DNA of 64,000 nucleotides from Ostreococcus lucimarinus. Taxonomy: Eukaryota. Numbering within the stretch: position 1 is the first letter of the stretch; every line of letters starts with the position of its first letter. Position numbers and translations under genes: made by a program. The stretch lies in the NCBI GenBank assembly GCA_000092065.1, contig CP000598.1; one strand, written 5' to 3'. Below, piece by piece: positions 2,620 through 60,842 of this stretch. Below the pieces are notes generated by a model, which saw only the letters and a list, made by a program, of their open reading frames with translations, did no database searches and was not told where the DNA came from.

Positions 2620-3166
2620 GAAGTGTTTTTGTCGTGCGTTCCTTATGCGGCAGGACTTAGAGGTGCGAATACTTGTGGATCCAAATGGGTAGATAAGGTA
2701 AAACCAGATGGTTCCCTTAAGTCTAGATTGGTAGTACAAGGATTCACCCAAGTTTGGTTGAAGGACTACCACGACACATTTAGTGCTTTTGCTTCCATGA
2801 CCACGTTTAGAATATTCATCAACGTTACGGCATCTTAAGATGGGACATCTTCACGAAAGATGTTTCCCAAGCTTAGACTTAGCTTAGAATTTAAGAGGAA
2901 CTTTTCAGGTCCAGCAGAAATTCACGAGTGTTCTAATCACTTCAACGTGATGTGAAGTCATATATCTTCAGAGTACATACAAGATTCCAGCAACCAGAGG
3001 TTGAATGAAGGTAATGTGAAGAGTGATGCGCTGCACACATTTCAAGAGTATCTCGAGAAGGTCGAAAGTGAGGAAACCCAACCTTTCAAAGGGATTGGTA
3101 CGTCTTCAGACTAGAGAAAGCTATAGCTCCTTGTAATCGACATCACTTATCGACGCACTAGGCCCG
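2620..3166 (+). mobile_element. Internally deleted remnant of the same Ty1/copia family: an RT fragment joined to the C-terminal end of pol, then a deleted 3' LTR.
   Basis: Translation CGSKWVDKVKPDGSLKSRLVVQGFTQVWLKDYHDTFSA (2677-2800) is near-identical to the RT segment of the intact pol at 53214-57212. Translation NFSGPAEIHECSNHFNVM...SDALHTFQEYLEKVESEETQPFKGIG (2900-3110) matches the pol C-terminus. Then come stop, the PPT-like ctagagaaagcta, and an LTR fragment ending at about 3166. Confidence 0.85.
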
Positions 3167-3527
3167 ATTGATCACAATTTATCAGGTATATCTCGCAGAA
3201 TCTGTCATTTATTATCAGGTGGAGGCAGCCAGATCACGCTGGTACACTGGTACCGAAAAAGCCTTCAGCAGGTGCTGCGGGCCTCTAGCCGGCGTTGCAT
3301 TGTCGCCCATCCTACCGCGTTGCACTGGTCGCTGTGAGCCGTCCGTGCGCGCGCCCACAGGTGTGCCGGTGGAATAACACCGATACCTTACCGACACACG
3401 TGCTCATCGATGTCGTCGCACGTAAAGAGCTTTTATTAAGACGAGTCGGCTGATTCTGCAACTCGCGGAACGAAACGTTTCGCGCACGAACGAGGGCTTT
3501 TTCGTCGCGAATTTCTCATCGCGCGGA

Positions 3528-4418
3528 ATGAAACGCGGAGGCGTTCGGAACAAGCTGTGCTCAACCAATCGGCGAGTTGATCGTTGCAATAAGGCATGGA
3601 CGCTCGCGCTGGTACCTTTCGCAACCACCTCAATTCTGCTTCTTTTGCTTCACGCGTCGCGGCGAGGTATACAAAGTCATTGGAACGACGCAACAGTGCC
3701 GGCGTTTCCGATGACTACGAATGGCGAAAACACAATGTCTGCTTTGCCTCACACATTGCACACCCTGACGTTACCGAACGATTCGTCGTTCGCGTTAAAA
3801 ATCACCACGCGACTCAACCCGACGTGGACGGTGAAGACGTACGACGCGTACGGCGGAGCCGAGTATATGGAAACGAACTGCAAAAAATATTCACGCGCGT
3901 ACAGAGCACTAAAACCACTCGCGTTCAAAGCTGATTTATTGCGGTACTGCATTCTGTACACCGAAGGCGGCGCTTGGATGGACGACGACATTTTACTGGT
4001 GAAGTCTCTCGACGAATTGACCCACGATATGCGCCACGACGCGTTGTTCGTGTACGACAGACGCGTGTACAAACTCGCGGGCGGGCCGAAACAAGTGTGG
4101 AACGCGTTCATGGTGGCGGTTCCCGGGTTGGACGTTTTCGCGCGCGCGATGGAGAAGATCGCCGCGAACGTCGCCGACCGACGACACTTTTATCATTCGT
4201 TGTACTACACCGGGCCCGCGTTGCTCTACGAAAGCATCGCGGATGGAGATTCGATCGAGTTTCGTTGGCGCGTGCAACATAGAGACGCGCTGAGCGCGGC
4301 GAGTCGACGCGTCGCGGACGTGCGCACGGACGAGGAGGTGTTGTTGCACTTTAAGCTGCCTCGAGCGACGAAGCACTACAGCGAAATGTCGCGGGGAGGG
4401 GACATTTACGCGTCGTGA
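3528..4418 (+). CDS. GT32-family glycosyltransferase (Och1/Gly_transf_sug type, DxD), type II membrane protein.
   Basis: 296 aa with the N-terminal hydrophobic anchor LALVPFATTSILLLLLHA. Motif KADLLRYCILYTEGGAWMDDDI matches the GT32 signature ADILRYxILYxYGGIYLDTDV. Confidence 0.7.
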   Translation: MKRGGVRNKLCSTNRRVDRCNKAWTLALVPFATTSILLLLLHASRRGIQSHWNDATVPAFPMTTNGENTMSALPHTLHTLTLPNDSSFALKITTRLNPTWTVKTYDAYGGAEYMETNCKKYSRAYRALKPLAFKADLLRYCILYTEGGAWMDDDILLVKSLDELTHDMRHDALFVYDRRVYKLAGGPKQVWNAFMVAVPGLDVFARAMEKIAANVADRRHFYHSLYYTGPALLYESIADGDSIEFRWRVQHRDALSAASRRVADVRTDEEVLLHFKLPRATKHYSEMSRGGDIYAS

Positions 4419-4641: not shown

Positions 4642-5613
4642 TTGTTGCTTTTCGCGGCGTGTTTGACCCTGTTCACACGGTATCGCCGCGCCAAACTCGC
4701 GCGTGCTCGGGTCGAAGAACAGCACTCGTCCGTACAACCGAAGCCGACGCGTTCGACGGCGCCGATCGCAAAAGACGTCGACGCCGCCTTCGATCGCGCG
4801 ATCAACGCGATCAACGCCGATAAGCTCAAGCGCTACGCGCTTTTCGACACCGTCTCGCGCGGAGGCACGCAGAAGGCCGATGGTTGGTACCAAGACAACG
4901 TGGAGCCCGCCGTGACGTGCGCGCGCGAAGAGCGCGCCGGTCCAGCTGGCGAGGGTGGGAAGGGGTTGTGCGACCCGAACCGTCTGCGCGCGCAGGGTGC
5001 GGACTGTTTGATATATAGCGTCGGAAGTTTCGATGACTTTAGTTTCGAAGAAGCGATCACGCGGGACGTGTCGAGCGCGCGCGAAATACACGCGTTCGAT
5101 CACACGGTGTCGAACCCGCGAAACAAACCGTGTGGTGTCCACTTTCATCCATTGGGATTAGGAGGCGCGCGCGAACCCGATGGGAGCGATTTGAAAGGTT
5201 TAGCCGACATCGTCGTCGCGCTCGGTCACAAAGGAAGGACGATAGACGTATTAAAAATTGACTGCGAAGGCTGCGAATGGAGCACTTACGGCAGCTGGTT
5301 CGACGCCGACGTGCGCGTCGATGAAATGCTCGTGGAAATACACGCGGGCACGATTGACTCGAACTTGAACGAAATACATCAATCGTGGCTCTCTCTGATC
5401 GTCGGCGAACAACTTTTCGGCCGCGGCGCGCTCGACCCTTCGCGCGAGCCGGTGGCGAAACGTTTCTTACGACGCCTTTACGACGAAAACTTTTACATTT
5501 TCCACAAAGAGCCGAATATCAAGTATTCACGATTGCACAAAATGTGCGTCGAATTCGCACTCATTCGCTTCGATGGTGGTATTGAGGGTGTGGAAAATTC
5601 CCCAAACTCGTAG
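4642..5613 (+). CDS. Methyltransf_21 (FkbM-domain) methyltransferase-like protein, membrane anchored.
   Basis: 323 aa. N-terminal TM LLFAACLTLF; CLIYSVGSFDDFSFEEAI...EIHAFDHTVS; later IDVLKIDCEGCEWS. These fit the Methyltransf_21 pattern (C.VYSFG.g.D.SFD ... HAFDPT ... ID.LKIDVEG.E). The true start may be internal. Confidence 0.6.
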   Translation: MLLFAACLTLFTRYRRAKLARARVEEQHSSVQPKPTRSTAPIAKDVDAAFDRAINAINADKLKRYALFDTVSRGGTQKADGWYQDNVEPAVTCAREERAGPAGEGGKGLCDPNRLRAQGADCLIYSVGSFDDFSFEEAITRDVSSAREIHAFDHTVSNPRNKPCGVHFHPLGLGGAREPDGSDLKGLADIVVALGHKGRTIDVLKIDCEGCEWSTYGSWFDADVRVDEMLVEIHAGTIDSNLNEIHQSWLSLIVGEQLFGRGALDPSREPVAKRFLRRLYDENFYIFHKEPNIKYSRLHKMCVEFALIRFDGGIEGVENSPNS

Positions 5614-15522: not shown

Positions 15523-17895
15523 CTAATACCAGTAAAGACACTGCTGAAACATTTCCAACGTTTCCTCGTCGGCGTGAAAACGTTCCATACGTATTTCTTC
15601 GTGGCGATTTTTAACATCTTCAACCGCCGACCGTCGCCTGGAAGACAACGTCACGTAGTCGTAGTGCTTGGCGATAGTTTTCATCGCATCGTGACGTTTT
15701 GATCTTCTCTCGTTGATTTTGTCACTTCCAAGATTTGGGGCTTCGTGCTTTCCGGCTTGTTTCATGCTGCAAGCACAAAGTTCTAGATCGCCTCCATTTT
15801 CCGGTCGAGGGCATCTCGCGCGCTTTGTACCGATGCCCAAGGTTGTTTGCAATACAGCACTTATCCAAAAGTCTTCCGCATTGTAAAGTAAAGGAGGGGG
15901 CGCGCGAAACGCGGCCTGTAACCAGACCATCCTCCCAGCCCACAAATGACCTCCAAAATCGTATTCATCATCTTCGTCAAACGTATCAACCGGACCTTCT
16001 TTCCAGTGACCTCGCCAATCGAATTCTAAAAACTTTTCGTTCAAAAATCTACCATTTCTCGTCGCCAAAAAGCCTTCATCGACGACACGCAGCATGTTCT
16101 CAAAGTACCTCGATCCGAACATAACGTCATCATCCAAAACAATAAACGTTGCGTGTGGAGTCGTTTGTACGAACATCGGCGCGAGAAAGCGACCGTAATA
16201 ACCCGTTTCAACTTTAGAATGCACGTGATATACGTGTGGTGGAACACCCGACCAAGCCTCTGAGCTATTCCATCGATGAAGCGCGTCGCTAATATCCACG
16301 TGCTCCCCGTTTTGAACGACAACGATGGCAGTTCTTTTCGTCATCAGCGTCGTCTGTTTGCTTATCATTTTCATCACTTGTGTGATTGTTTTACGTTTCC
16401 AAACCGTCACGACGACCACATTCTCGTACGGCGCAGTGGAGTGTTCATTATGAAACGAAGACGATACTGGAAGTGTCTTTGGCGGCGGCGTTCTCAACAT
16501 TGTCTCGAGGATGCGCACGATGTTTCCAGCAGCATTCCCATCGCCATAAGTTTTCTTCGAGCCTGACATGGATCTATAAGAATCGGGATCTTTCAGCAAA
16601 GACGCCGCTTCGGTGTATATACTTTCTGCACCGTGACCAACTAGTTTTGCGGCGCCCGCGAGCACTCCTTCTGGTCTCTCTGTTGTGTCTCTGAGCACTA
16701 ACACCGGTTTTCCTAGAGTGACCGCTTCCTCTTGGATACCTCCCGAATCTGTCATGACGAAAAAACTCTCTTTCATCATGAATAATAAATCTGCATGGTC
16801 TAGAGGTGGTACTATCAGCAATCGCCGTAAGTGCGTAGTCGTTGGCGGCGCGTGGTCCGACTGTACAAGGCTGTGGAATGTATCAACGCCGAAGTGCTGT
16901 TCTGCTAAGTGCTTCACCATAGGGTTCAAGTGAATGGGATAAATCACGACGACGTCAGGGTATTCTTGCAGAAGCTTCTCTATGCTTGTGAAGATGTTGA
17001 GTATGGGTTCGCCAAGGTTTTCACGTCGATGAGCGGTGAGAAGTAACAGCCTCACGTCGCGCAGAGTGGATACAGTCTTCACGACTTTGGATAGCTCAAT
17101 CACTCGATCACTCGGTTCAGTCTTTAAAATTGCATATAGGGCATCGACAACAGTGTTACCGGTTGTAAACACATTCGTGCGTCTACCCTCGTCGTACAGA
17201 TTTTTTGCCGCGTGTTCGGTGGGTGCGAAGTGATACGTCGCCATAACTGAGATACACTGTCTATTGACTTCTTCGGGAAAGGGTGAGTAGATATCACGCG
17301 TACGAAGACCCGCTTCGATGTGTCCAACTGGTATTTTCAAGTAAAACGCCGCCAAAGACGTGATAAACGCTGTCGTTGTATCGCCCTGCACGAGCACCGC
17401 GTCTGGTTTTGACGAACGTAGCACGCCGTCTACCGCGCGCACCGCGCTCGATGTGAGCTCTGCGAGCTGTTGATTTGGCTTCATCAGCGCTAGCTCGTGT
17501 TGAATTTTATCTTGCAAGCTGAACTGGCGCAGAACTTGCTCAAGCATCTGTTTGTGTTGACCCGTGGAGATCAGTATCGCACTCAGAGTCGACGATCTGG
17601 CCACCGCTTGAATCACCGGAGCCATTTTCACAGCCTCTGGTCGCGTACCGAAGACAATCGCGATTTTGATTTCAGCAGAATAGGCCGTTCTGTCGAAACG
17701 TTCTGACTCGATATCTTTCATCGAGTCCAACGAGGGCGTGGGAGGATCGCCTTTTCGCGGCCAACCGGCATGTTTGTTCACCGATAGCAGGGCGGCGAAA
17801 CACAACGAGACTAGCGAGACTAACGAGACTAACGAGATCAGAGTTCTCGCTCTTCGGCGATCGAGGACGAGGATACTTTTTAACCGTCCCATCAA
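15523..17895 (-). CDS. Fusion protein: N-terminal signal anchor, a non-hydrolysing UDP-GlcNAc 2-epimerase (WecB/Epimerase_2) domain, and a C-terminal GT64-like (EXT C-terminal type, DDD) glycosyltransferase domain.
   Basis: 790 aa. TM LISLVSLVSLVSLCFAALL, encoded by a 9-nt x3 tandem cgagactaa. The epimerase domain has IAIVFGTRPEAVKMAPVI ... GHIEAGLRTRDIYSPFPEEVNRQCISVMATYHFAPTEHAAKNLYDEG, the canonical WecB motif. The C-terminal domain has FIVLDDDVMF ... FGGHLWAGRMVWL ... NAEDFWISAVL, co-linear with the GT64 motifs (vLSLDDD, LTgaAF.H, CEDI.MNFLV). Confidence 0.8.
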   Translation of the reverse strand: MMGRLKSILVLDRRRARTLISLVSLVSLVSLCFAALLSVNKHAGWPRKGDPPTPSLDSMKDIESERFDRTAYSAEIKIAIVFGTRPEAVKMAPVIQAVARSSTLSAILISTGQHKQMLEQVLRQFSLQDKIQHELALMKPNQQLAELTSSAVRAVDGVLRSSKPDAVLVQGDTTTAFITSLAAFYLKIPVGHIEAGLRTRDIYSPFPEEVNRQCISVMATYHFAPTEHAAKNLYDEGRRTNVFTTGNTVVDALYAILKTEPSDRVIELSKVVKTVSTLRDVRLLLLTAHRRENLGEPILNIFTSIEKLLQEYPDVVVIYPIHLNPMVKHLAEQHFGVDTFHSLVQSDHAPPTTTHLRRLLIVPPLDHADLLFMMKESFFVMTDSGGIQEEAVTLGKPVLVLRDTTERPEGVLAGAAKLVGHGAESIYTEAASLLKDPDSYRSMSGSKKTYGDGNAAGNIVRILETMLRTPPPKTLPVSSSFHNEHSTAPYENVVVVTVWKRKTITQVMKMISKQTTLMTKRTAIVVVQNGEHVDISDALHRWNSSEAWSGVPPHVYHVHSKVETGYYGRFLAPMFVQTTPHATFIVLDDDVMFGSRYFENMLRVVDEGFLATRNGRFLNEKFLEFDWRGHWKEGPVDTFDEDDEYDFGGHLWAGRMVWLQAAFRAPPPLLYNAEDFWISAVLQTTLGIGTKRARCPRPENGGDLELCACSMKQAGKHEAPNLGSDKINERRSKRHDAMKTIAKHYDYVTLSSRRRSAVEDVKNRHEEIRMERFHADEETLEMFQQCLYWY

Positions 17896-18764: not shown

Positions 18765-18860
18765 TATTTTCGAAATGCGAGCTATACCTAATACTATGCG
18801 ATCAATCGGGCCTGCGTCAATAAGTGATGATGATTACAAGTAGCTATCATTGATTAGTAC
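18765..18860. repeat. Divergent LTR-like fragment related to the copia LTR.
   Basis: gctatacctaatactatgcgatcaatcgggcctgcgtcaataagtgatgatgattacaa parallels the LTR start gctataccttatatgatggtgagcaatcgggcctagtgcgtcgataagtgatgataattacaa. Confidence 0.55.
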
Positions 18861-52814: not shown

Positions 52815-53023
52815 GTTTGTTCATGTCGTAGCGCGTCACTACACACCGCGCGCGTCCGGGTGACGCTGATTGGCGCGGGAAGCGGCCGTGGCAGCCTATG
52901 AGAAACCTTGGGTATAAGTCGCGATGGTTGCCGCGGAACTGGCTAAATCCAGCCTTGTTTTTTGGGGTGGGGTAAAACGACCAATCGTGACTCAATATCC
53001 GTTTATATATTTAGTGCACACTT

Positions 53024-53196
53024 TGCGAGCTATACCTTATATGATGGTGAGCAATCGGGCCTAGTGCGTCGATAAGTGATGATAATTACAATCAGTTGTG
53101 GTTAGTTCATTAATGAGTGTTAACTCGTCAATTAGTCCCGCTAGGTTACTAGGGGAAGCTACTATATTTCATATTTTACTCTTCAGATTTCTAACA
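53024..53196 (-). repeat. 3' LTR (in element orientation) of the copia element.
   Basis: Identical to 58579-58751. Confidence 0.9.
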
Positions 53197-53213
53197 CACC
53201 TCCTTAGCTTTCT

Positions 53214-56200
53214 CTAGTCTGAGGGCTTACCAATACCTTTGAAAGGTTGGATTTCCTCACTTTCGACCTTCTCGAGATATTCTTGAAATGTGTGCAGAGC
53301 GTCACTCTTCACCATACCTTCACTCAACCTCTGGTTGATGAAGTCTCGTATGTCCTTCGAAGATATATGACTTAACATCACGTTGAAGTGATTAGAACAC
53401 TCGTGAACGTCTGCTGGACCTGAAAAGTTCTTCTTGTTCGGCAATATCTTTGTCAACATATCGGCTAAGTTGTGTGATGATCCTATGTTAAATGGCTGTA
53501 TAATCCCTTCTCTGTGAGCATAATGTTGGATCCAGGAGTATCTTATTTCCATATGCTTGTTTGACTTAGACGACATAGTTTCCATTGCCTGTCGAATGGC
53601 TGTCGTATTATCGCAGAAGAGTGGTACTCTTGACAGTTTAAATCCAAGCTCTCGAAACAACAAAATTTGAAAGAATAAATCTTTCGCGGCTTCATACATT
53701 GCCATGAACTCTGCTTGCGCTGAACTCGTGGCTGGTATTCCTTGCAGTTTGCTCTTCCAATTGGTAGGGCCGCATGAAAAAGATATATACCCCGATGTGG
53801 ATTTTCTTCCGCATCTATCTTTCGAATTTAAGGATAACTTTTGGCCTGCCCAATCCGAGTCTGTAAATCCTGCAAGTCTCACTATACCATTGCATTCAGC
53901 ACCGTTGTAGGTTAATGGAATATTGGGGTTCCTCTTGAGATATCCAACCGCTCTGCATAAAGCGCTAAATTGCTTATGCGTTGGGTTACTTGCTACCCTT
54001 CCAGCTAGACTGCATACCACAGCAAGATCTGGTCGAGTAGCAGTATTAAACCAATTCAGACTTCCCAGCACTTGTTGATATGTTGTCCGCTTCATCCTGT
54101 CTACTGCATCTGTGTCATCCTCCTTGGCGAGAACAAACGTATCTGATGGTAGTAATGGCGAATTGCAAGCATTGATATCTTGCACAGGACATTTTGCCAG
54201 AAACTGCGCAATTGAATATTCTTGGTTGAGTGTGTAACAATTCTTCCCTAATCTCTTTATATGGATGCCGTTGTACACCTTTATCCTTTCAAATTGCGAA
54301 ACTTTGTAAATTCTGGAAAATTCTTTGTGGAACTGCTTGACAACCTCATCGTTCTCAGCGGTTATCAGAAGATCATCTACCAATACTGAAATGATCATGA
54401 AGGGCTTGCTATTGCTCATCTTAACAAACAAACAGCTATCCTTACATAATTGGTTCAAACCCAGAGACCTTAGAGTCTTGGTTACATGCAAATACCAACA
54501 CCGTCCCGCTTGCTTTGTGCCATACAAGGGTCTGCGTAACTTGTAGACCATTCCTTTCGGAAGCGGATGTGACCTTGGGGCCTTGACGTATATATCATCT
54601 AGGAGTTCCCCTTGCGTGTAAGCTTGGGATACATCTATCGTAAAGATGTCCCATCCTAATATCGCCGCCAAGTTTATGAGTATCCTAAATGTGGTCATGG
54701 AAGCAACGGCACTAAATGTGTCGTGGTAGTCCTTCAACCAAACTTGGGTGAATCCTTGCACTACCAATCTAGACTTAAGGGAACCATCTGGTTTTACCTT
54801 ATCTACCCATTTGGATCCACAAATATTTGCATCTCCGGCTTCAACAATACTGACCTCCATTAATGTGGTTTCGAGCAATCCATTGAGCTCTTTTGCTCTG
54901 CTCTCTGAGAAATCCACACTTGACTCATCAATAATTTTACCGTATTCTTCGCCTTTTGCGACGGCTGTGGCTAGCACACTGTGTGCTGCCCTATTTGTCG
55001 AATCAGCGTTATTTAGCGCAGGATTCAATTTTACCGTTTTATCGCCGTAACTCCCGCCCTGGAGCTGGATATGCGAATACTTACATGTGAGGTAGATAAC
55101 CTGTTTCTTGAGCTCATCCTCAGAAACTCTACCATTCTCTTTGAAGTGGTTAACGAGATGTTCAATATCGTCAGTCGGTTGATCAGTCCCAACATCAGCA
55201 TTGTTCTCTGCGTCAACACCTCCTTCAACTTCTTCAAGGATCTCTGGAGAAAACCCGCTAGGCCCCCAGCCTGGATACTTATCCTGAAGGCTACTCTGGT
55301 CCATCCTTGTCCGTTCCCTCGCAAATTCGAGAAAATCCTCGACTAGACCAGCATTGGCGTTATTGAGCGCCGGAACTACATCGCTAGCGTTATTGAGCGC
55401 TGAGCCAGCGTTATTTAGCGCTGCTTCGGCGTTATTGAGCGCCGGAAATGGTTCGCTAGCGTTATTGAGCGCTGAGCCAGCGTTATTTAGCGCTGCTTCT
55501 CCCCCGGACTGCGGATAATCCTCGTCAAGATCGTCATCTTCGCAATCACTTTCAGATTTGTATCCTTGGTCCTCCTTTTGAGAATCCAACAAATCATTCA
55601 ACCAATCGTCCAGGTCACGGCGGTCGGAAAGCTCCGGTGGGAGGATAACAAGCTCCGGTGGGAGGATACTATTGTCGGTTAGCTCTGTTCGGTCTCCTGT
55701 TAATCCAGGATGCTCCCCATTCTGTGCATTCACCGACCCAGCGTTATTGAGCGCCGGTCTATTTACATAATTTTCATGGTCGAAGATCAACTCCGACGTT
55801 TCTTGAACATAACCTGGTGCTGATCCTTGGCGTTTCAGGATGCTGTTGGACAAAACCACAACATATTTCTTCGGGTGCAAAGTTACACTAGAGTAACCTA
55901 TGAACCACACTGGAAATCTACTCACACACCAATCCGGCCTTGAAGCCGGGTGCTGATTACTCAAATTTTGAGCAATCACATTCCGCGCCATATACGCCTT
56001 ACAACCAAATGGATGTAAGACTTGGATATCCACACCGTGTCCAAAAACTTCATAATACGGAGATTGCAACTTATTGTGCACTTTGACTCCAGTTATATTT
56101 CTTACTGTGGCGGCGTACTTCATGGCATATACCCAAAACTCACTCGGCACGCCACTTGCTATCAAGAGCTTTTTGGCGATTATCTTGAGTGCTTGATTCG

Positions 56201-57212
56201 TCCTTTCTGCTACGCCATTTTGCCACGGATGTCCTACATCACTCTTGGAAAATACCATTCCATGATCATCACAGAATTTTCCAAATGTAGACTTGATATC
56301 GCCACCACCATCGGAGTGTATCCGCTTGAGTCGAATTTCTCCATCTTGATGGTATCTTCTGCGGTGGTCTTGTATTAACGCTAGATCGCGCTTAAATTCC
56401 TTAAGCGCATGTGTCAGTGACCTTTCCTCAACGGTGGACGGCCGATTGCTCTCTACGGGGTAGACCAGCTGGAATCTGGTATACTCATCTGTAACGGTCA
56501 AACATGCCTTTTGATCTACAATCTTACAAACCATAGAACCTCTTGGCGGTCCGAAAGTCACGTCCATGTGGACAATTTCAAACGGTTTTGTACATCGCTT
56601 GGTACTCCTCTTACCGTGATTCGTTTGTCTTGTATGACCTATCTTGCATGTGACGCAATTATCGGCAGCATTATTCAACTTTGCTTGTAGCTCGTCCAGA
56701 GGTTTGTCACTTGTTATCCAACTATTGTTGAATGCAGTAAGTAATGTATTACTTGACACATGGCCAAGTGTATCATGTATTAACGTCGGTATCCAGAATA
56801 TGGGCCGTTTTGACGATATATCTATCACCGGCAATCCATCGTGACGTCGACGAACATTAACATCATGATATTTTCCATCTTCATCTGGTAATTTGATACT
56901 TCCGCCGGAGTCATTTAGGCTAATCGGGTAACCTGTGCATGATAATATTCCGGCTCCTGGAAGATCGGCTCCAGGGGCACAGTTTGCCTCGAAATGGAAT
57001 TCAAAATGTTTTCCTTCCGTGTCAACTAGATCAACCTTTGCAACTCCTGATTTGGTCACTACCGTAGTGCCGTTGATAGAGGTCAAGATTTCGTTTCCTC
57101 GAGACTTCACGTTGTGCAACTTTAGTGCATCATTTATTACACTCACACACGCTCCACTGTCGACCAGTAAAGTATTTTTGTTGCCTAGATGATATGTCTC
57201 GAGGATTATCGG
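53214..57212 (-). CDS. Copia Pol (protease, integrase, RT, RNaseH), in the same reading frame as gag directly downstream of the gag TGA.
   Basis: Translation immediately after the gag stop reads PIILETYHLGNKNTLLVDSGACVSVINDA... (protease DSGA). Integrase has HDTLGHV...CVTCKIGK and D..E. RT has YVDDLLI-like VLVDDLLITA. The C-terminus ends KGIGKPSD. Confidence 0.85.
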   Translation of the reverse strand, partial: PIILETYHLGNKNTLLVDSGACVSVINDALKLHNVKSRGNEILTSINGTTVVTKSGVAKVDLVDTEGKHFEFHFEANCAPGADLPGAGILSCTGYPISLNDSGGSIKLPDEDGKYHDVNVRRRHDGLPVIDISSKRPIFWIPTLIHDTLGHVSSNTLLTAFNNSWITSDKPLDELQAKLNNAADNCVTCKIGHTRQTNHGKRSTKRCTKPFEIVHMDVTFGPPRGSMVCKIVDQKACLTVTDEYTRFQLVYPVESNRPSTVEERSLTHALKEFKRDLALIQDHRRRYHQDGEIRLKRIHSDGGGDIKSTFGKFCDDHGMVFSKSDVGHPWQNGVAERTNQALKIIAKKLLIASGVPSEFWVYAMKYAATVRNITGVKVHNKLQSPYYEVFGHGVDIQVLHPFGCKAYMARNVIAQNLSNQHPASRPDWCVSRFPVWFIGYSSVTLHPKKYVVVLSNSILKRQGSAPGYVQETSELIFDHENYVNRPALNNAGSVNAQNGEHPGLTGDRTELTDNSILPPELVILPPELSDRRDLDDWLNDLLDSQKEDQGYKSESDCEDDDLDEDYPQSGGEAALNNAGSALNNASEPFPALNNAEAALNNAGSALNNASDVVPALNNANAGLVEDFLEFARERTRMDQSSLQDKYPGWGPSGFSPEILEEVEGGVDAENNADVGTDQPTDDIEHLVNHFKENGRVSEDELKKQVIYLTCKYSHIQLQGGSYGDKTVKLNPALNNADSTNRAAHSVLATAVAKGEEYGKIIDESSVDFSESRAKELNGLLETTLMEVSIVEAGDANICGSKWVDKVKPDGSLKSRLVVQGFTQVWLKDYHDTFSAVASMTTFRILINLAAILGWDIFTIDVSQAYTQGELLDDIYVKAPRSHPLPKGMVYKLRRPLYGTKQAGRCWYLHVTKTLRSLGLNQLCKDSCLFVKMSNSKPFMIISVLVDDLLITAENDEVVKQFHKEFSRIYKVSQFERIKVYNGIHIKRLGKNCYTLNQEYSIAQFLAKCPVQDINACNSPLLPSDTFVLAKEDDTDAVDRMKRTTYQQVLGSLNWFNTATRPDLAVVCSLAGRVASNPTHKQFSALCRAVGYLKRNPNIPLTYNGAECNGIVRLAGFTDSDWAGQKLSLNSKDRCGRKSTSGYISFSCGPTNWKSKLQGIPATSSAQAEFMAMYEAAKDLFFQILLFRELGFKLSRVPLFCDNTTAIRQAMETMSSKSNKHMEIRYSWIQHYAHREGIIQPFNIGSSHNLADMLTKILPNKKNFSGPADVHECSNHFNVMLSHISSKDIRDFINQRLSEGMVKSDALHTFQEYLEKVESEEIQPFKGIGKPSD

Positions 57213-57215
57213 TCA

Positions 57216-58391
57216 CTCGTCTTTCTCTTTTGGATCAGACTCGTTCCCTCTTGGTTTCTTATTGGCAAACTTGTCTACCCGCCGCTGCAGATCAGGACGT
57301 AACGGCGATTTACACTCCCAATACCTGTGACCTTTCCTGTTACAGTTGAAGCAAGCTCCTTTCGGCTGAAACTTCTTCCGCTTCAGATTATTCACAGCAA
57401 GCTGTTTAGGTGATGTCTCCTGATCGAGTTTATCAGCTATAACAAGCTTATTCGTGCATTTGGTAAAGTCCAGTTTGTCGCGCTGCTGGGAAAGTAACTC
57501 CTCACACACCTTTTTGACATTCGTTCGAGACAGCGGAGACGCCAACAACATAACGAGTATTGTTTCGGTGAAACCACTGAATTCGATCGTTTCCGAAGTG
57601 GTGAGTTCGTTCCCATTTATCGTGAACGCAGATTGAACCTGCCGACGCAACCTCAGCCCGTTGTTGAGTCTAACTTGACTATCATTTGGGAGGGAAGTAA
57701 ACAATTTTCTTTTGTTACCCAAGAATTCCGCCATGTTTCCGGATCCAGTGTACTTTATGTCATTTAACCGATTCTCTACGAGAGTTTGGATCGTTGAGTA
57801 AGGGTCTAATTCCAGAAGTAATCTGTCTAACAAAGTAATCCCCGACCAAGTCGCTCTTGACGCTCTCATGTCGCTTACGAGCTTCTTGAGTTGTTCAGGA
57901 AATACATTTGATAAATCAAAAACGCCGTCAGCCAGTTCTTGATCCGCAACATCGAGCGGTACCAATGTCCTATCCGGATGTAACTTCTCATAGTCTTTCA
58001 CTGTAACACGATTATTCTCAGCGTTAGCAGGTGGTAACCCCGGGAGTCCGTTGGAATCCCTTTCATCCTGCATTACGTTGTAAACGTATTTACACAAATC
58101 GATGTTATCACGGAATGTAATATCCAGCGAAGCTACGATTGCGGTGATCCTGCAAAGATCCATATTGGCATTTTTATACTTTGCATCAATGTAGTGGCGC
58201 AACAGCTTATCCGCAGCGATCGACACACTGACGGCCTCCGTTTTCCTTCTTCCGTTGATTTTAGAAGATGTAAACCTGTAGTTCAAAGATTGAACCATTA
58301 AATCTATAAATTCGACTACGTTGTCGCCTTGAACACCGCTCTTGAAACGCGTGAACGACGCCAGGTCCGTTGGTAGGAACGCTTCCGACAT
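57216..58391 (-). CDS. Copia Gag with CCHC zinc knuckle.
   Basis: 391 aa. The C-terminal CFNCNRKGHRYWECK is a CX2CX4HX4C motif. It ends at TGA 57213-57215. Confidence 0.85.
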
Positions 58392-58578
58392 CTTGCTTTG
58401 GTTAAGCGTTTTAAGGCGTTACTAAATTTAGAATCTTCTAAAAATAGAACGATTCGCTCTAAAAATAGAACGACTCTTTACAAACCGATCGAGGCGCAAA
58501 AGGCACTCTTCCGATTGACACTAATCGTAGGTCCACGCTAGCGTGCTGCACGTCGTCGCAGATGGCAGAATCGTACGA

Positions 58579-58751
58579 TGCGAGCTATACCTTATATGAT
58601 GGTGAGCAATCGGGCCTAGTGCGTCGATAAGTGATGATAATTACAATCAGTTGTGGTTAGTTCATTAATGAGTGTTAACTCGTCAATTAGTCCCGCTAGG
58701 TTACTAGGGGAAGCTACTATATTTCATATTTTACTCTTCAGATTTCTAACA
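58579..58751 (-). repeat. 5' LTR (in element orientation) of the copia element.
   Basis: Identical to 53024-53196. Confidence 0.9.
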
Positions 58752-60842
58752 CACTTCGACTATGTATCACGAATGCGGATCCTCGCACTTGAGAAACCTC
58801 GGATTTATACGTCGCGATGGGTGTCGTGCGTGAGAAACCTTGGGTTTATAAGTCGCAATAGATGTCGTGCGTGCTTGGCTTGTCTGATGCTGATTCATAC
58901 GCGCTAAGTCTATATGTAGGTCTAGTTCGTGTACAAGTAGTGTAGACATGCACGTCAGCAACAAAAAACTCCGCCGGTGCATTTGGCTTGAAAAAGTTCG
59001 AGCTCTATCACTAGATGCGACCTACCAATGATCACACCGTTCGTGTTCCTCTTAACCAACTTTGCTTGTGTGCTTCTCTGTCGGATATCTTGTCATTCTT
59101 GACCTTCTCGAAATTTGTCTCTATCCAATCCATGATCCACTTGCCCCACTCATGAATATGGCGACTCCAGACGTCGACTTCATTCCAAGATCTGATTTTC
59201 CAGGAAATAATTCTTCATTTACAAAGTTCGAATCACTAAACGCTGCCGGACATATACTCGAGTCCTTCCTGAAGTACAGTTCTACGACTTAAAATGTTCG
59301 TCAAATCAAGATTCGATACAAAGTGCGCAAATTCCGAATCGTCCAGAAGGCTGCGGCATAGATTTGTTTTTGCAACGTAAAAACGGCTTGAAAACTATCG
59401 GCCTTGAGAAATCTCAAGACAATGTCAATGTTGGCACACGTCAGCTCATCGGCGCTCACACACTCACTAAGCGCGATCATGCCGAGTCTGCAAACAGTGT
59501 TGTAAGTCTGGCTATCATATTTGTATTTGCTTACTGCGCTCTTTTCATTTTAAAGAGGATGCCGAAGCGGATTTAAAGTTGGCCACGTTGAGAGGCTCAG
59601 ATAAGAGCATGTATTATTAGCTTGTATTCTTGATAAGCCTTTCCGGATAGAATGCGTGACGAGTTACGACTCAACTGCAACTGTGAACATCAATCGAAAC
59701 TGAAAGTTCAGAAGTTGTGACCGCTCGCTGGAAAATTGACCCACTACCGACGGTGACAGTCGCCGTGGCGAATTGTTTTTGTTTGGGCACTGCGCAGACG
59801 AAATCGAGAATTTTGGCGATATGAGGTGAGGACTATGCGAGGCGGGGGGAGAGTCTACGCGGTCTTGGTCCCAGTGGCATTCCTTCCTAGCCGACTGCGT
59901 CTCTGTAGGAACGTTTCGCCGTCGATGAGCTACACCAGAAGTATCGCGACGGCATATCGCGACGATGGGCGCCGCCGCCTAGGCGCGGGAAGTCTGATCC
60001 CGGCTACGAAAGATATAAGACCCACCCCGCGTTACGAAAGTCTTGATACAGTGTATGGTTTTTCATAGTGCAGTGCAACGAACGTGTCGAATACGATGAC
60101 GCGTGAAATGAAGGGGAAACGACGACCAAACGGGGTTCCACAGCGCGCAGGGTTCGTGCGTATTTCGCGCGCGGCGTCTTGTCGGCGTGCTCATCCATCG
60201 CGACGAAAGTGGGCGAGGCCGATGCACGTTGGCTTTTACACGTTCTGCGCGTCGTTCGCCGATCCGGCGTGGGGACGCGGTTCTCGCGCGCGCGTCGCGC
60301 GTCGCGCGCGCCGCGAAGGCGACGACGACGACGATCGCGCTTCCGAGACCCTCGTCGCGCGTCTCCGCGCGCGTCGCGTCGCGTGCGGTTCGCGCGACGC
60401 GTCGCGCGCGCGCGACTGGGCTCGTTCGGTGCGTTGCGCCGCCGCGGTGCGGTGGCGGCGCGCGCGACCGCGCGGGCGCGCGTTTCAGTGATGGCGTGCG
60501 TGATTGCATAACGCCCGTTTCAGTGATGGCGTGTGTGTCTGTTGCGATGATGGTATATATGGCTCGTTTCGAAGTAAAATATGTATATTAGATCGTATTA
60601 TGATACATTTAAGTCTATCTGTGTGATCCATGGATACATTTTCGTTCGATTGATTTTTTCGGTCGCGAAAGCGCGCGGTCGCCGGGTCAACCAACACCTT
60701 CATCTCCGGGGGGGATCGAAGATTGTTTTTTACGGTCGCGCGCGCGGTCGCCGCGGACGCCCCCGCCCTCGTCGACGCCGCGCTGACTGTCGCGCGCTGA
60801 CTGACGCGCGCTGACTGACGCGCGCGCGATCGAACGCCGCGA

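Follow-up and report, generated by a model that had tools for sequence, protein, structure and literature searches.

We analysed a stretch of 64,000 nucleotides from Ostreococcus lucimarinus (contig CP000598.1 of assembly GCA_000092065.1), here called the window in its full length, which harbors a complete Ty1/copia retrotransposon with long terminal repeats (LTRs). The gag and pol genes of this element lie in one reading frame and are separated by a single TGA codon, and we consider it probable that the family to which the element belongs sets the ratio of Gag to Gag-Pol by programmed readthrough of this single UGA at the end of gag. An earlier note, made from the letters of the window, had proposed programmed readthrough at this codon. 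The proposal is supported by the conservation of the TGA among relatives, by the lack, in the window element, of an AUG between stop and protease, by the use of TGA as an ordinary stop, by the lack of a match to a selenocysteine insertion sequence (SECIS) in the scanned sequence, and by a predicted RNA helix downstream of the stop.

Both genes are encoded on the minus strand of the window, with the following landmarks.

57216-58391, minus strand: gag open reading frame (ORF), 392 amino acids, with one CCHC zinc knuckle near the C-terminus (from the ORF translation).
57213-57215, minus strand: in-frame TGA that closes gag, in the context GAG-UGA-C (read from the sequence).
53214-57212, minus strand: pol ORF of 1,332 codons plus a TAG (53216-53214), in the same frame as gag, with protease, integrase, reverse transcriptase and RNase H regions.
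57150-57170, minus strand: protease active-site motif LLVDSGA, starting 14 codons past the stop (pol amino acids 15-21).
56591-56226, minus strand: Pfam domain rve at pol amino acids 208-329 (27.7 bits, E=3.3e-6, which is under the Pfam cut-off of 32.6 bits).
54827-54150, minus strand: Pfam domain RVT_2 at pol amino acids 796-1021 (154.8 bits).

The gag-pol frame of the window element comprises 1,726 codons and contains exactly one internal stop, the TGA, and the D-S-G-A residues of the protease are pol amino acids 18-21. The earlier note had described gag as ending in TGA and being continued in the same frame by the protease motif LLVDSGA and the rest of pol, had quoted the 3' context as TGA-CCG-ATA-ATC-CTC-GAG, and had allowed that the frame relationship between 57216 and 57212 might have been misread. 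The ORFs, the frame and the letters all agree with this description, and pol begins, without a change of frame, at the codon next to the TGA. No Pfam match was obtained for the gag protein, whose sequence is that of XP_001422326.1 (OSTLU_25775) from Ostreococcus lucimarinus CCE9901; identical gag and junction sequences were also assembled from an independent sequencing run (L001). Because Pfam places rve (integrase) before RVT_2 (reverse transcriptase), the domain order is that of Ty1/copia elements, and we assign the element to Ty1/copia on the basis of its LTR structure, the length of its target-site duplication, its domain order and the type of its reverse transcriptase.

Relatives of the element were gathered by a pol protein search with exact look-up of the encoding contigs; in addition, metagenome contigs were scanned with an alignment of pol from the four lineages, and a profile search was run with gag. 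We distinguish the following four lineages, where each identity is that of pol compared to the pol of the window element: (i) a lineage with L008 and L016, 84-94% identical; (ii) a lineage with L005, L009, L024, L003 and L060, 73-82% identical; (iii) a lineage with L002, L059 and L058, 53% identical; (iv) a lineage with L006, L004, L007 and L011, 53-55% identical. All 15 sequences that span the junction, i.e., the window and 14 public loci, have TGA at the homologous codon and in frame with pol; they represent nine distinct junction variants from the four lineages, and the loci named as carrying the TGA are L001-L009, L011, L016, L024, L058, L059 and L060. The codon before the TGA encodes glutamate (GAG or GAA) in every variant. 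Eight of the nine variants have C as the base next to the TGA, and the variant of L002 and L059 has U. In the intact members (the window, L002, L005, L006 and L058), the TGA is the sole stop in 1,665-1,763 codons, and it is kept even in L003, which is degraded by additional stops and a frameshift, and in the internally deleted L060. No sense codon was found at the junction position among the junction-bearing relatives examined. A comparison with other copies had been recommended along with the proposal of readthrough; a nonsense mutation in one copy is ruled out by it, because every junction-bearing relative has TGA.

In the nearest outgroups (about 30% identity), gag, protease, integrase and reverse transcriptase share one ORF, whose product has 1,300-1,500 amino acids, and the best named homologues of pol are plant copia polyproteins (about 30% identity, E=1e-70 or better). 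P0046 from Diutina catenulata, the one yeast Gag-Pol among the pol matches, is 27% identical over the reverse transcriptase-RNase H region (E=3e-45). This protein was the stand-in for the Candida albicans element Tca2 (pCal), also a Ty1/copia element with a gag-pol stop, and the comparison made through P0046, rather than with Tca2 itself, places the window element outside the Tca2 lineage. The stop is ancestral to the Ostreococcus family, to judge from its distribution among the four lineages, and it probably arose independently of Tca2, since the nearest outgroups have a fused gag-pol ORF and P0046 is no closer. The family extends beyond the window: an O. tauri protein and RCC789 transcripts (Ostreococcus sp.) fall into the cluster around L002, and a gag cluster at 90% identity has 188 members across marine data sets. 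It should be noted that two metagenome contigs carry rearranged members. One (L060 691-2217) keeps gag and the TGA and has lost the protease region, and the other (L061 2218-3171) has a truncated gag fused to unrelated sequence, beside glycosyltransferase genes; both are non-autonomous or chimeric derivatives.

The RNA downstream of the stop was folded as a segment of 150 nt starting at the UGA, and helix positions are counted from the U of the UGA. The predicted closing helix of the window element, in which CCUCGAGAC pairs with GUCUCGAGG, has the following arms.

57196-57205, minus strand: 5' arm of the predicted closing helix, UCCUCGAGAC, pairing with 57105-57096.
57096-57105, minus strand: 3' arm of the predicted closing helix, GUCUCGAGGA, nt +111 to +120, present in the minimum free energy (MFE) and centroid folds.

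A closing helix of 8-10 bp, with a spacer of 8 nt and a loop of 89-111 nt, was predicted for the window, L008, L016, L005, L024, L002 and L058; MFE and centroid structures agree on it for the window, L005, L024, L002 and L058, and for L008 and L016 it is present in the MFE structure. The 5' arm starts at nt 11-12, and the loop contains the active-site codons of the protease. The invariant core, 7-8 bp long, begins 8 nt past the stop, and one extra U-A pair in the window leaves a spacer of 7 nt there. The examination of downstream RNA structure suggested in the earlier note thus yielded a conserved predicted helix 8 nt past the stop in three of the four lineages; geometry of the alphavirus type, described below, was not found in the lineage of L006.

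As a control for coding constraints, we used synonymous-codon resampling, in which codons were drawn from each element's own usage and the protein was left unchanged. The duplex between the arms was stronger than expected from this resampling in the window (p=0.002), L005 (p=0.002) and L002 (p<0.001), and so was the MFE of the 150-nt segment (p<0.001, p=0.012 and p=0.005, respectively). Dinucleotide shuffling gave z-scores of -3.55 for the window, -4.53 for L002 and -2.26 for L024, and a duplex scan along every position of each element placed the stop site in the top 1.5%, 3.2%, 0.2% and 3.5%. The 3' arms lie at different codon offsets and are misaligned by plain MAFFT; therefore, pairs were counted on 46-nt motif-anchored constructs. 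Across the eight distinct sequences, 63 of the 64 cells for core pairs 12-19 hold a pair; both sides have changed in two of the pairs, and three pairs show wobble changes. Pair 17 is A-U in the window group and L005, G-U in L024 and G-C in L002 and L058; pair 19, which is A-U in most variants, is mismatched in L002, and L058 has G-C there. A single wobble change is seen in each of pairs 15 and 16. Three lineages share the motif CYYGAGG of the 3' arm but read it in codon phases 2, 3 and 1, as SRG, FSRE and PEE; being conserved in three codon phases and with different peptides, it is conserved as RNA and not as protein.

The helix could instead serve another purpose, such as RNA dimerisation, packaging or the control of reverse transcription, with UGA-C alone setting the level of readthrough, and we consider this unlikely. 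Both arms of the window helix hold the self-complementary CUCGAG, which is able to pair between two RNA molecules, and the lineage of L006 manages without the helix; both points speak for another purpose. Conversely, the arms of L002 and L058 (CCUCGGGG and CCCGAGG or CCCUGAGG) are not self-complementary and still pair with each other, and the 5' arm keeps its distance of 8 nt from the stop in three lineages, which is the spacing relevant to stimulators of readthrough.

We then considered at which level the stop is passed. TGA is the commonest ordinary stop in the host: of the 32 stop-to-stop ORFs in the window that reach 250 codons or more, 15 end with it. The window element contains 18 TGG codons compared to one TGA. 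Because TGA ends these long ORFs and tryptophan in the element is encoded by TGG, the standard genetic code applies, and a reassigned code is ruled out. The first methionine in the pol frame is amino acid 216, past the protease motif; therefore, reinitiation cannot supply the protease and is ruled out as well, and the stop must be overcome on the full-length RNA. In the window, L005 and L006, the stretch from the stop to the protease has no AUG, and a methionine before the protease is present in the L002 lineage only. A search for suppressor-tRNA features had also been recommended, and it came back empty: ARAGORN found no tRNA gene in the window or in any fetched locus, so that there is no suppressor-tRNA candidate among them, and a nearby suppressor tRNA was rejected on this basis.

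Transcript data bear on the same question. The gag peptides from the RCC789 transcriptome (P0207) have the same terminal ...KRKTE, which coincides exactly with the stop, and they show that the family is expressed. A longer prediction, P0206 (MMETSP0938, Ostreococcus sp. RCC789, 1,669 amino acids), enters the +1 frame for 11 residues and then returns to frame 0; the residues at its junction, DGLSSGLSQKT, are those of the +1 frame of L002 (L002 1474-1520). P0206 is therefore a frame-hopping software prediction, and its interpretation as a Gag-Pol fused through a sense codon is ruled out. The end of the gag peptides at the stop and the frame hop of P0206 imply the presence of the stop in the mRNA; the frame hop also means that database proteins of this family can hide the stop codon.

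These observations bear on the possibility that the stop is bypassed otherwise, i.e., by removal at the RNA level (a small intron or editing), by an internal transcript with a non-AUG start, or by a route like that of Tca2, and we regard this as rather improbable. The conserved GAG|TGA does hold GU at a possible splice-donor position. However, a frame-preserving intron from GA|GUGA must end at an AGN codon, the first of which in the window is the Ser of DSG, so that the catalytic Asp would be lost; the alternative GU...AG in the window spans 32 nt and breaks the frame, and splicing out of the stop was rejected on these grounds. RNA-level removal in general has against it the gag peptides and the frame hop of P0206 just described, and a separate start of pol has against it that no methionine precedes the protease in the window, L005 and L006. 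In favor of another route, the Tca2 junction showed no readthrough in Saccharomyces cerevisiae and had weak promoter activity, from which its authors concluded that the bypass is non-canonical, and the L006 lineage is without significant structure.

Decoding of the UGA as selenocysteine (Sec), or its modulation by the Sec machinery with the stem-loop acting as a Sec-redefinition element, is very unlikely. Selenoproteins are unusually numerous in Ostreococcus, all nine variants have UGA and never UAA or UAG as the stop, and the stable predicted stem-loop starts a few nucleotides after the UGA. However, no SECIS element was detected at E<=10 on either strand of the element and its edges (52900-58900), nor in the whole window at the gathering threshold, and the 3' untranslated region consists of just 17 nt plus the LTR. 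The exclusive use of UGA followed by C is also the expectation of simple leakiness. The lack of a SECIS-like element likewise argues against the UGA as a regulated recoding site tied to the Sec machinery of the host, which we take to be highly improbable; if it were true, Sec-linked recoding would make the output of Gag-Pol, and hence transposition, depend on selenium or tRNA-Sec status.

It is scarcely credible that this copy or the whole family is dead, with the TGA a nonsense mutation or with Gag-only elements that receive Pol in trans: a fraction of new LTR insertions is expected to be defective on arrival (PMC9744471) and degraded relatives do exist (L003, with its additional stops and frameshift, and L060, with its lost protease region), yet the TGA is present in four lineages down to 53% pol identity with about 1,300 open and conserved pol codons behind it, no relative with a sense codon was found, and a neutral nonsense mutation is not expected to persist while the codons downstream of it are under purifying selection.

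Programmed readthrough is the best explanation, given that TGA is an ordinary stop, that no SECIS was detected in the scanned sequence and that no methionine precedes the protease in the window element. Under programmed readthrough, most ribosomes would terminate at the UGA and release Gag, and a few per cent would decode the UGA with a near-cognate tRNA and go on in the same frame into pol. The resulting Gag-Pol fusion, comprising protease, integrase, reverse transcriptase and RNase H, would then be cut by the protease. The leaky tetranucleotide UGA-C would be the signal, with the C at +4 and a helix at the mRNA entrance helping near-cognate insertion, and in three of the four lineages the downstream helix, which closes a domain of 89-111 nt, would stimulate readthrough. 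Judging from the predicted folds and from analogy with known stimulators, such stimulation by the helix is probable.

Several points weigh against this explanation. We infer the Gag-Pol fusion and the passage of ribosomes at the stop from the sequence. For Tca2, no readthrough was obtained in S. cerevisiae from a 300-nt stretch around the UGA (PMC2194720); because of this failure, an in-frame stop with a predicted structure is not proof of canonical readthrough. The lineage of L006 (L006, L004, L007 and L011) keeps UGA-C, and its helix is different and non-significant (duplex p=0.058, MFE p=0.35, z=-0.43). L058 keeps the helix, but the overall stability of its fold is ordinary (z=-0.75). The covariation is modest, as a score at least as high as the observed one came from 17 of 500 column shuffles, and the helix comparison rests on eight distinct sequences only. 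It should also be noted that the windows used in the duplex test were picked after the fold of the window element had been seen.

Gao and colleagues reportedly stated in 2003 that most Ty1/copia elements encode a single gag-pol ORF, and our full-text literature searches found no earlier description of the stop codon in Ostreococcus elements. The earlier note had held in-frame stop suppression to be rare, and this is true within Ty1/copia but not beyond it: readthrough of an in-frame gag-pol stop is well known in gammaretroviruses and in Ty3/gypsy elements, e.g., Tj1 (PMC2194720; bioRxiv 10.1101/2022.12.06.519325). UGA-C is a documented leaky context (PMC3159437; bioRxiv 10.1101/2022.12.06.519325). 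We compared the Ostreococcus junction to four types of known systems.

The closest parallel in geometry is the alphavirus type of readthrough signal (Venezuelan equine encephalitis virus, VEEV, and Sindbis virus, together with furo-, tobra- and pecluviruses). In alphaviruses, this geometry enhances readthrough at UGA-C by up to about 10-fold. VEEV has UGA-C, a spacer of 8-9 nt, a stem of 11-12 bp and a loop of 101 nt, with a 10- to 14-fold stimulation, and similar stems with spacers of 7-8 nt are present in several plant virus genera (PMC3159437). Features in common are UGA-C, a stem of about 10 bp that begins 7-9 nt after the stop, a loop of about 100 nt within coding sequence, and at least one apparently compensatory change from A-U to G-C. 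In contrast, the alphavirus-type signals lie in replicase or coat-extension genes of RNA viruses and not at the gag-pol junction of a retrotransposon, and their stems of 11-12 bp or longer have been tested by mutagenesis, whereas the Ostreococcus core is 7-8 bp long and predicted.

Tca2 resembles the Ostreococcus elements in being a Ty1/copia element with a single in-frame gag-UGA-pol and a predicted structure after a spacer of 8 nt, and its Pol must come from the full-length gag-pol RNA; the mechanism of its bypass was left open by its authors (PMC2194720). The structure predicted for Tca2 is a compact pseudoknot, whereas that of Ostreococcus is a long-range helix closing about 100 nt. There is no specific kinship, as the stand-in P0046 is 27% identical compared to about 30% for plant copias (Tca2 itself was not part of the comparison). 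Finally, the Tca2 junction failed in a heterologous yeast, and the Ostreococcus junction is known from sequence alone.

A third parallel is found in the fission-yeast elements Tj1, Tcry1 and Tosmo1-3, in which GAA-TGA-CT is strictly conserved; Tj1 cannot transpose without the stop (bioRxiv 10.1101/2022.12.06.519325). They share with Ostreococcus a glutamate codon followed by TGA-C, i.e., GAA-TGA-CT in the fission-yeast elements and GAR-TGA-C in Ostreococcus. However, they are Ty3/gypsy elements with the order protease, reverse transcriptase, RNase H, integrase, and the passages of that preprint consulted describe no downstream structure. On this comparison, the Glu-UGA-C context common to the Tj1-type and Ostreococcus elements appears to be convergent. 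The fourth system is Moloney murine leukaemia virus, where about 5% readthrough sets the ratio of Gag to Gag-Pol; it also has an in-frame gag-pol stop, a spacer of 8 nt and a downstream RNA structure, but it is a retrovirus with UAG and a compact pseudoknot, whereas Ostreococcus has UGA and an extended stem-loop.

The Ostreococcus family would thus be a second, apparently independent case in Ty1/copia after Tca2, the one that has been studied and that is mechanistically unresolved, and the conservation of its stop is backed by a comparison across four lineages. It does not represent a new principle; the type of gag-pol readthrough is known, and the host, a tiny marine green alga with a very compact genome, is distant. 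The family apparently converged on the Glu-UGA-C context of Tj1 and on a spacer and an extended stem-loop in the style of alphaviruses.

The element as a whole is 5,728 bp long and occupies 53024-58751 on the minus strand. Its remaining features are as follows.

53019-53023: target-site duplication CACTT, downstream side, the same 5-mer at both ends, abutting the LTR termini.
58752-58756: target-site duplication CACTT, upstream side, the same 5-mer at both ends.
53024-53196, minus strand: 3' LTR, 173 bp, TG...CA, matching the 5' LTR at 173 of 173 positions.
58579-58751, minus strand: 5' LTR, 173 bp, matching the 3' LTR at 173 of 173 positions.
53199-53213, minus strand: polypurine-rich tract AGAAAGCTAAGGAGG, just upstream of the 3' LTR (read from the sequence).
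58564-58578, minus strand: primer-binding-site region TCGTACGATTCTGCC, directly after the 5' LTR (read from the sequence).

On the element strand the LTR ends read TGTTAG...GCTCGCA. A repeat finder gave 179 nt and 99% for the LTRs, which included flanking bases; the true LTR is 173 bp. The identity of the LTRs and the intact CACTT duplication had been claimed before, and both claims held, with the span of 53019-58756 matching exactly. Because the LTRs are identical, the duplication is intact and the ORFs are intact, the element fits a recent insertion, and its activity is plausible. The position of AGAAAGCTAAGGAGG is typical of a plus-strand primer site, which it probably represents. The sequence TCGTACGAT follows the 5' LTR, as ...CGCA|TCGTACGAT, and is kept in three lineages (in L005 and L006 it lies upstream of gag); its start is not TGG, so that it lacks complementarity to the CCA end of a tRNA. 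No tRNA gene with which TCGTACGAT could be compared was found by ARAGORN in the window or in any fetched locus. Some other copia elements prime from an internal tRNA fragment, and the primer here may be such a fragment or something else.

Two repeats were observed within pol. The 14-nt motif GCGCTMAATAACGC is present in eight copies between 55006 and 55754, in the linker between integrase and reverse transcriptase (coding on the minus strand), with each copy encoding ALNNA; the copies include a 72-bp tandem duplication at 55356-55499, and the motif is found nowhere else in the window. It may be a peptide repeat or a nucleic-acid site. In addition, a perfect 21-nt tandem duplication at 55629-55668 encodes ILPPELV/ILPPELS; this duplication is recent and in frame, and it lies within the variable linker.

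The window is gene-dense, with 52.6% G+C, and sugar-metabolism genes are present. In Ostreococcus, Ty1/copia elements reportedly concentrate strongly on the small outlier chromosome, and one Ty1/copia element of about 5 kb has RNA-seq coverage in O. tauri (bioRxiv 10.1101/2025.04.21.649811). The chromosome that holds the element described here is likely, from its size and content, to be this small outlier chromosome. The family is transcribed and frequent in marine metagenomes, and it would reside on an outlier chromosome that is hypervariable and rich in transposable elements, so that the throttling of Pol would bear on the evolution of outlier chromosomes. An ORF of 790 amino acids at 15523-17895 (minus strand) contains a UDP-N-acetylglucosamine 2-epimerase domain (PF02350), and its best matches are marine metagenome proteins with 97% and then 60% identity; sugar-modifying genes have been reported from the outlier chromosomes of Ostreococcus (bioRxiv 10.1101/2025.04.21.649811), and this ORF is in keeping with them.

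An older relic of the family lies at 2660-3197 on the plus strand and consists of a partial LTR (87% identity) joined to two fragments of pol, which correspond to element nt 3918-4137 and 5318-5548 and match the element at about 90% identity, and a lone LTR fragment of about 65 nt with 84% identity is located at 18775-18839. Therefore, the family hit this chromosome region more than once. ORFs of 375 amino acids are present both beside the relic in the window and beside the L058 element, and they proved to be unrelated to each other. The complete element is inserted in a short tandem array of a 41-bp repeat (consensus TGAGAAACCTCGGATTTATAAGTCGCAATAGATGTCGTGCG), units of which lie on both sides (58783-58873 and 52900-52930). 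Just past the insertion there are GC-rich simple repeats, namely an array of the CGCGCG type with a period of 12-18 nt at 60284-60414, and the 14-nt repeat GACGCGCGCTGACT is present in 3.6 copies at 60774-60825.

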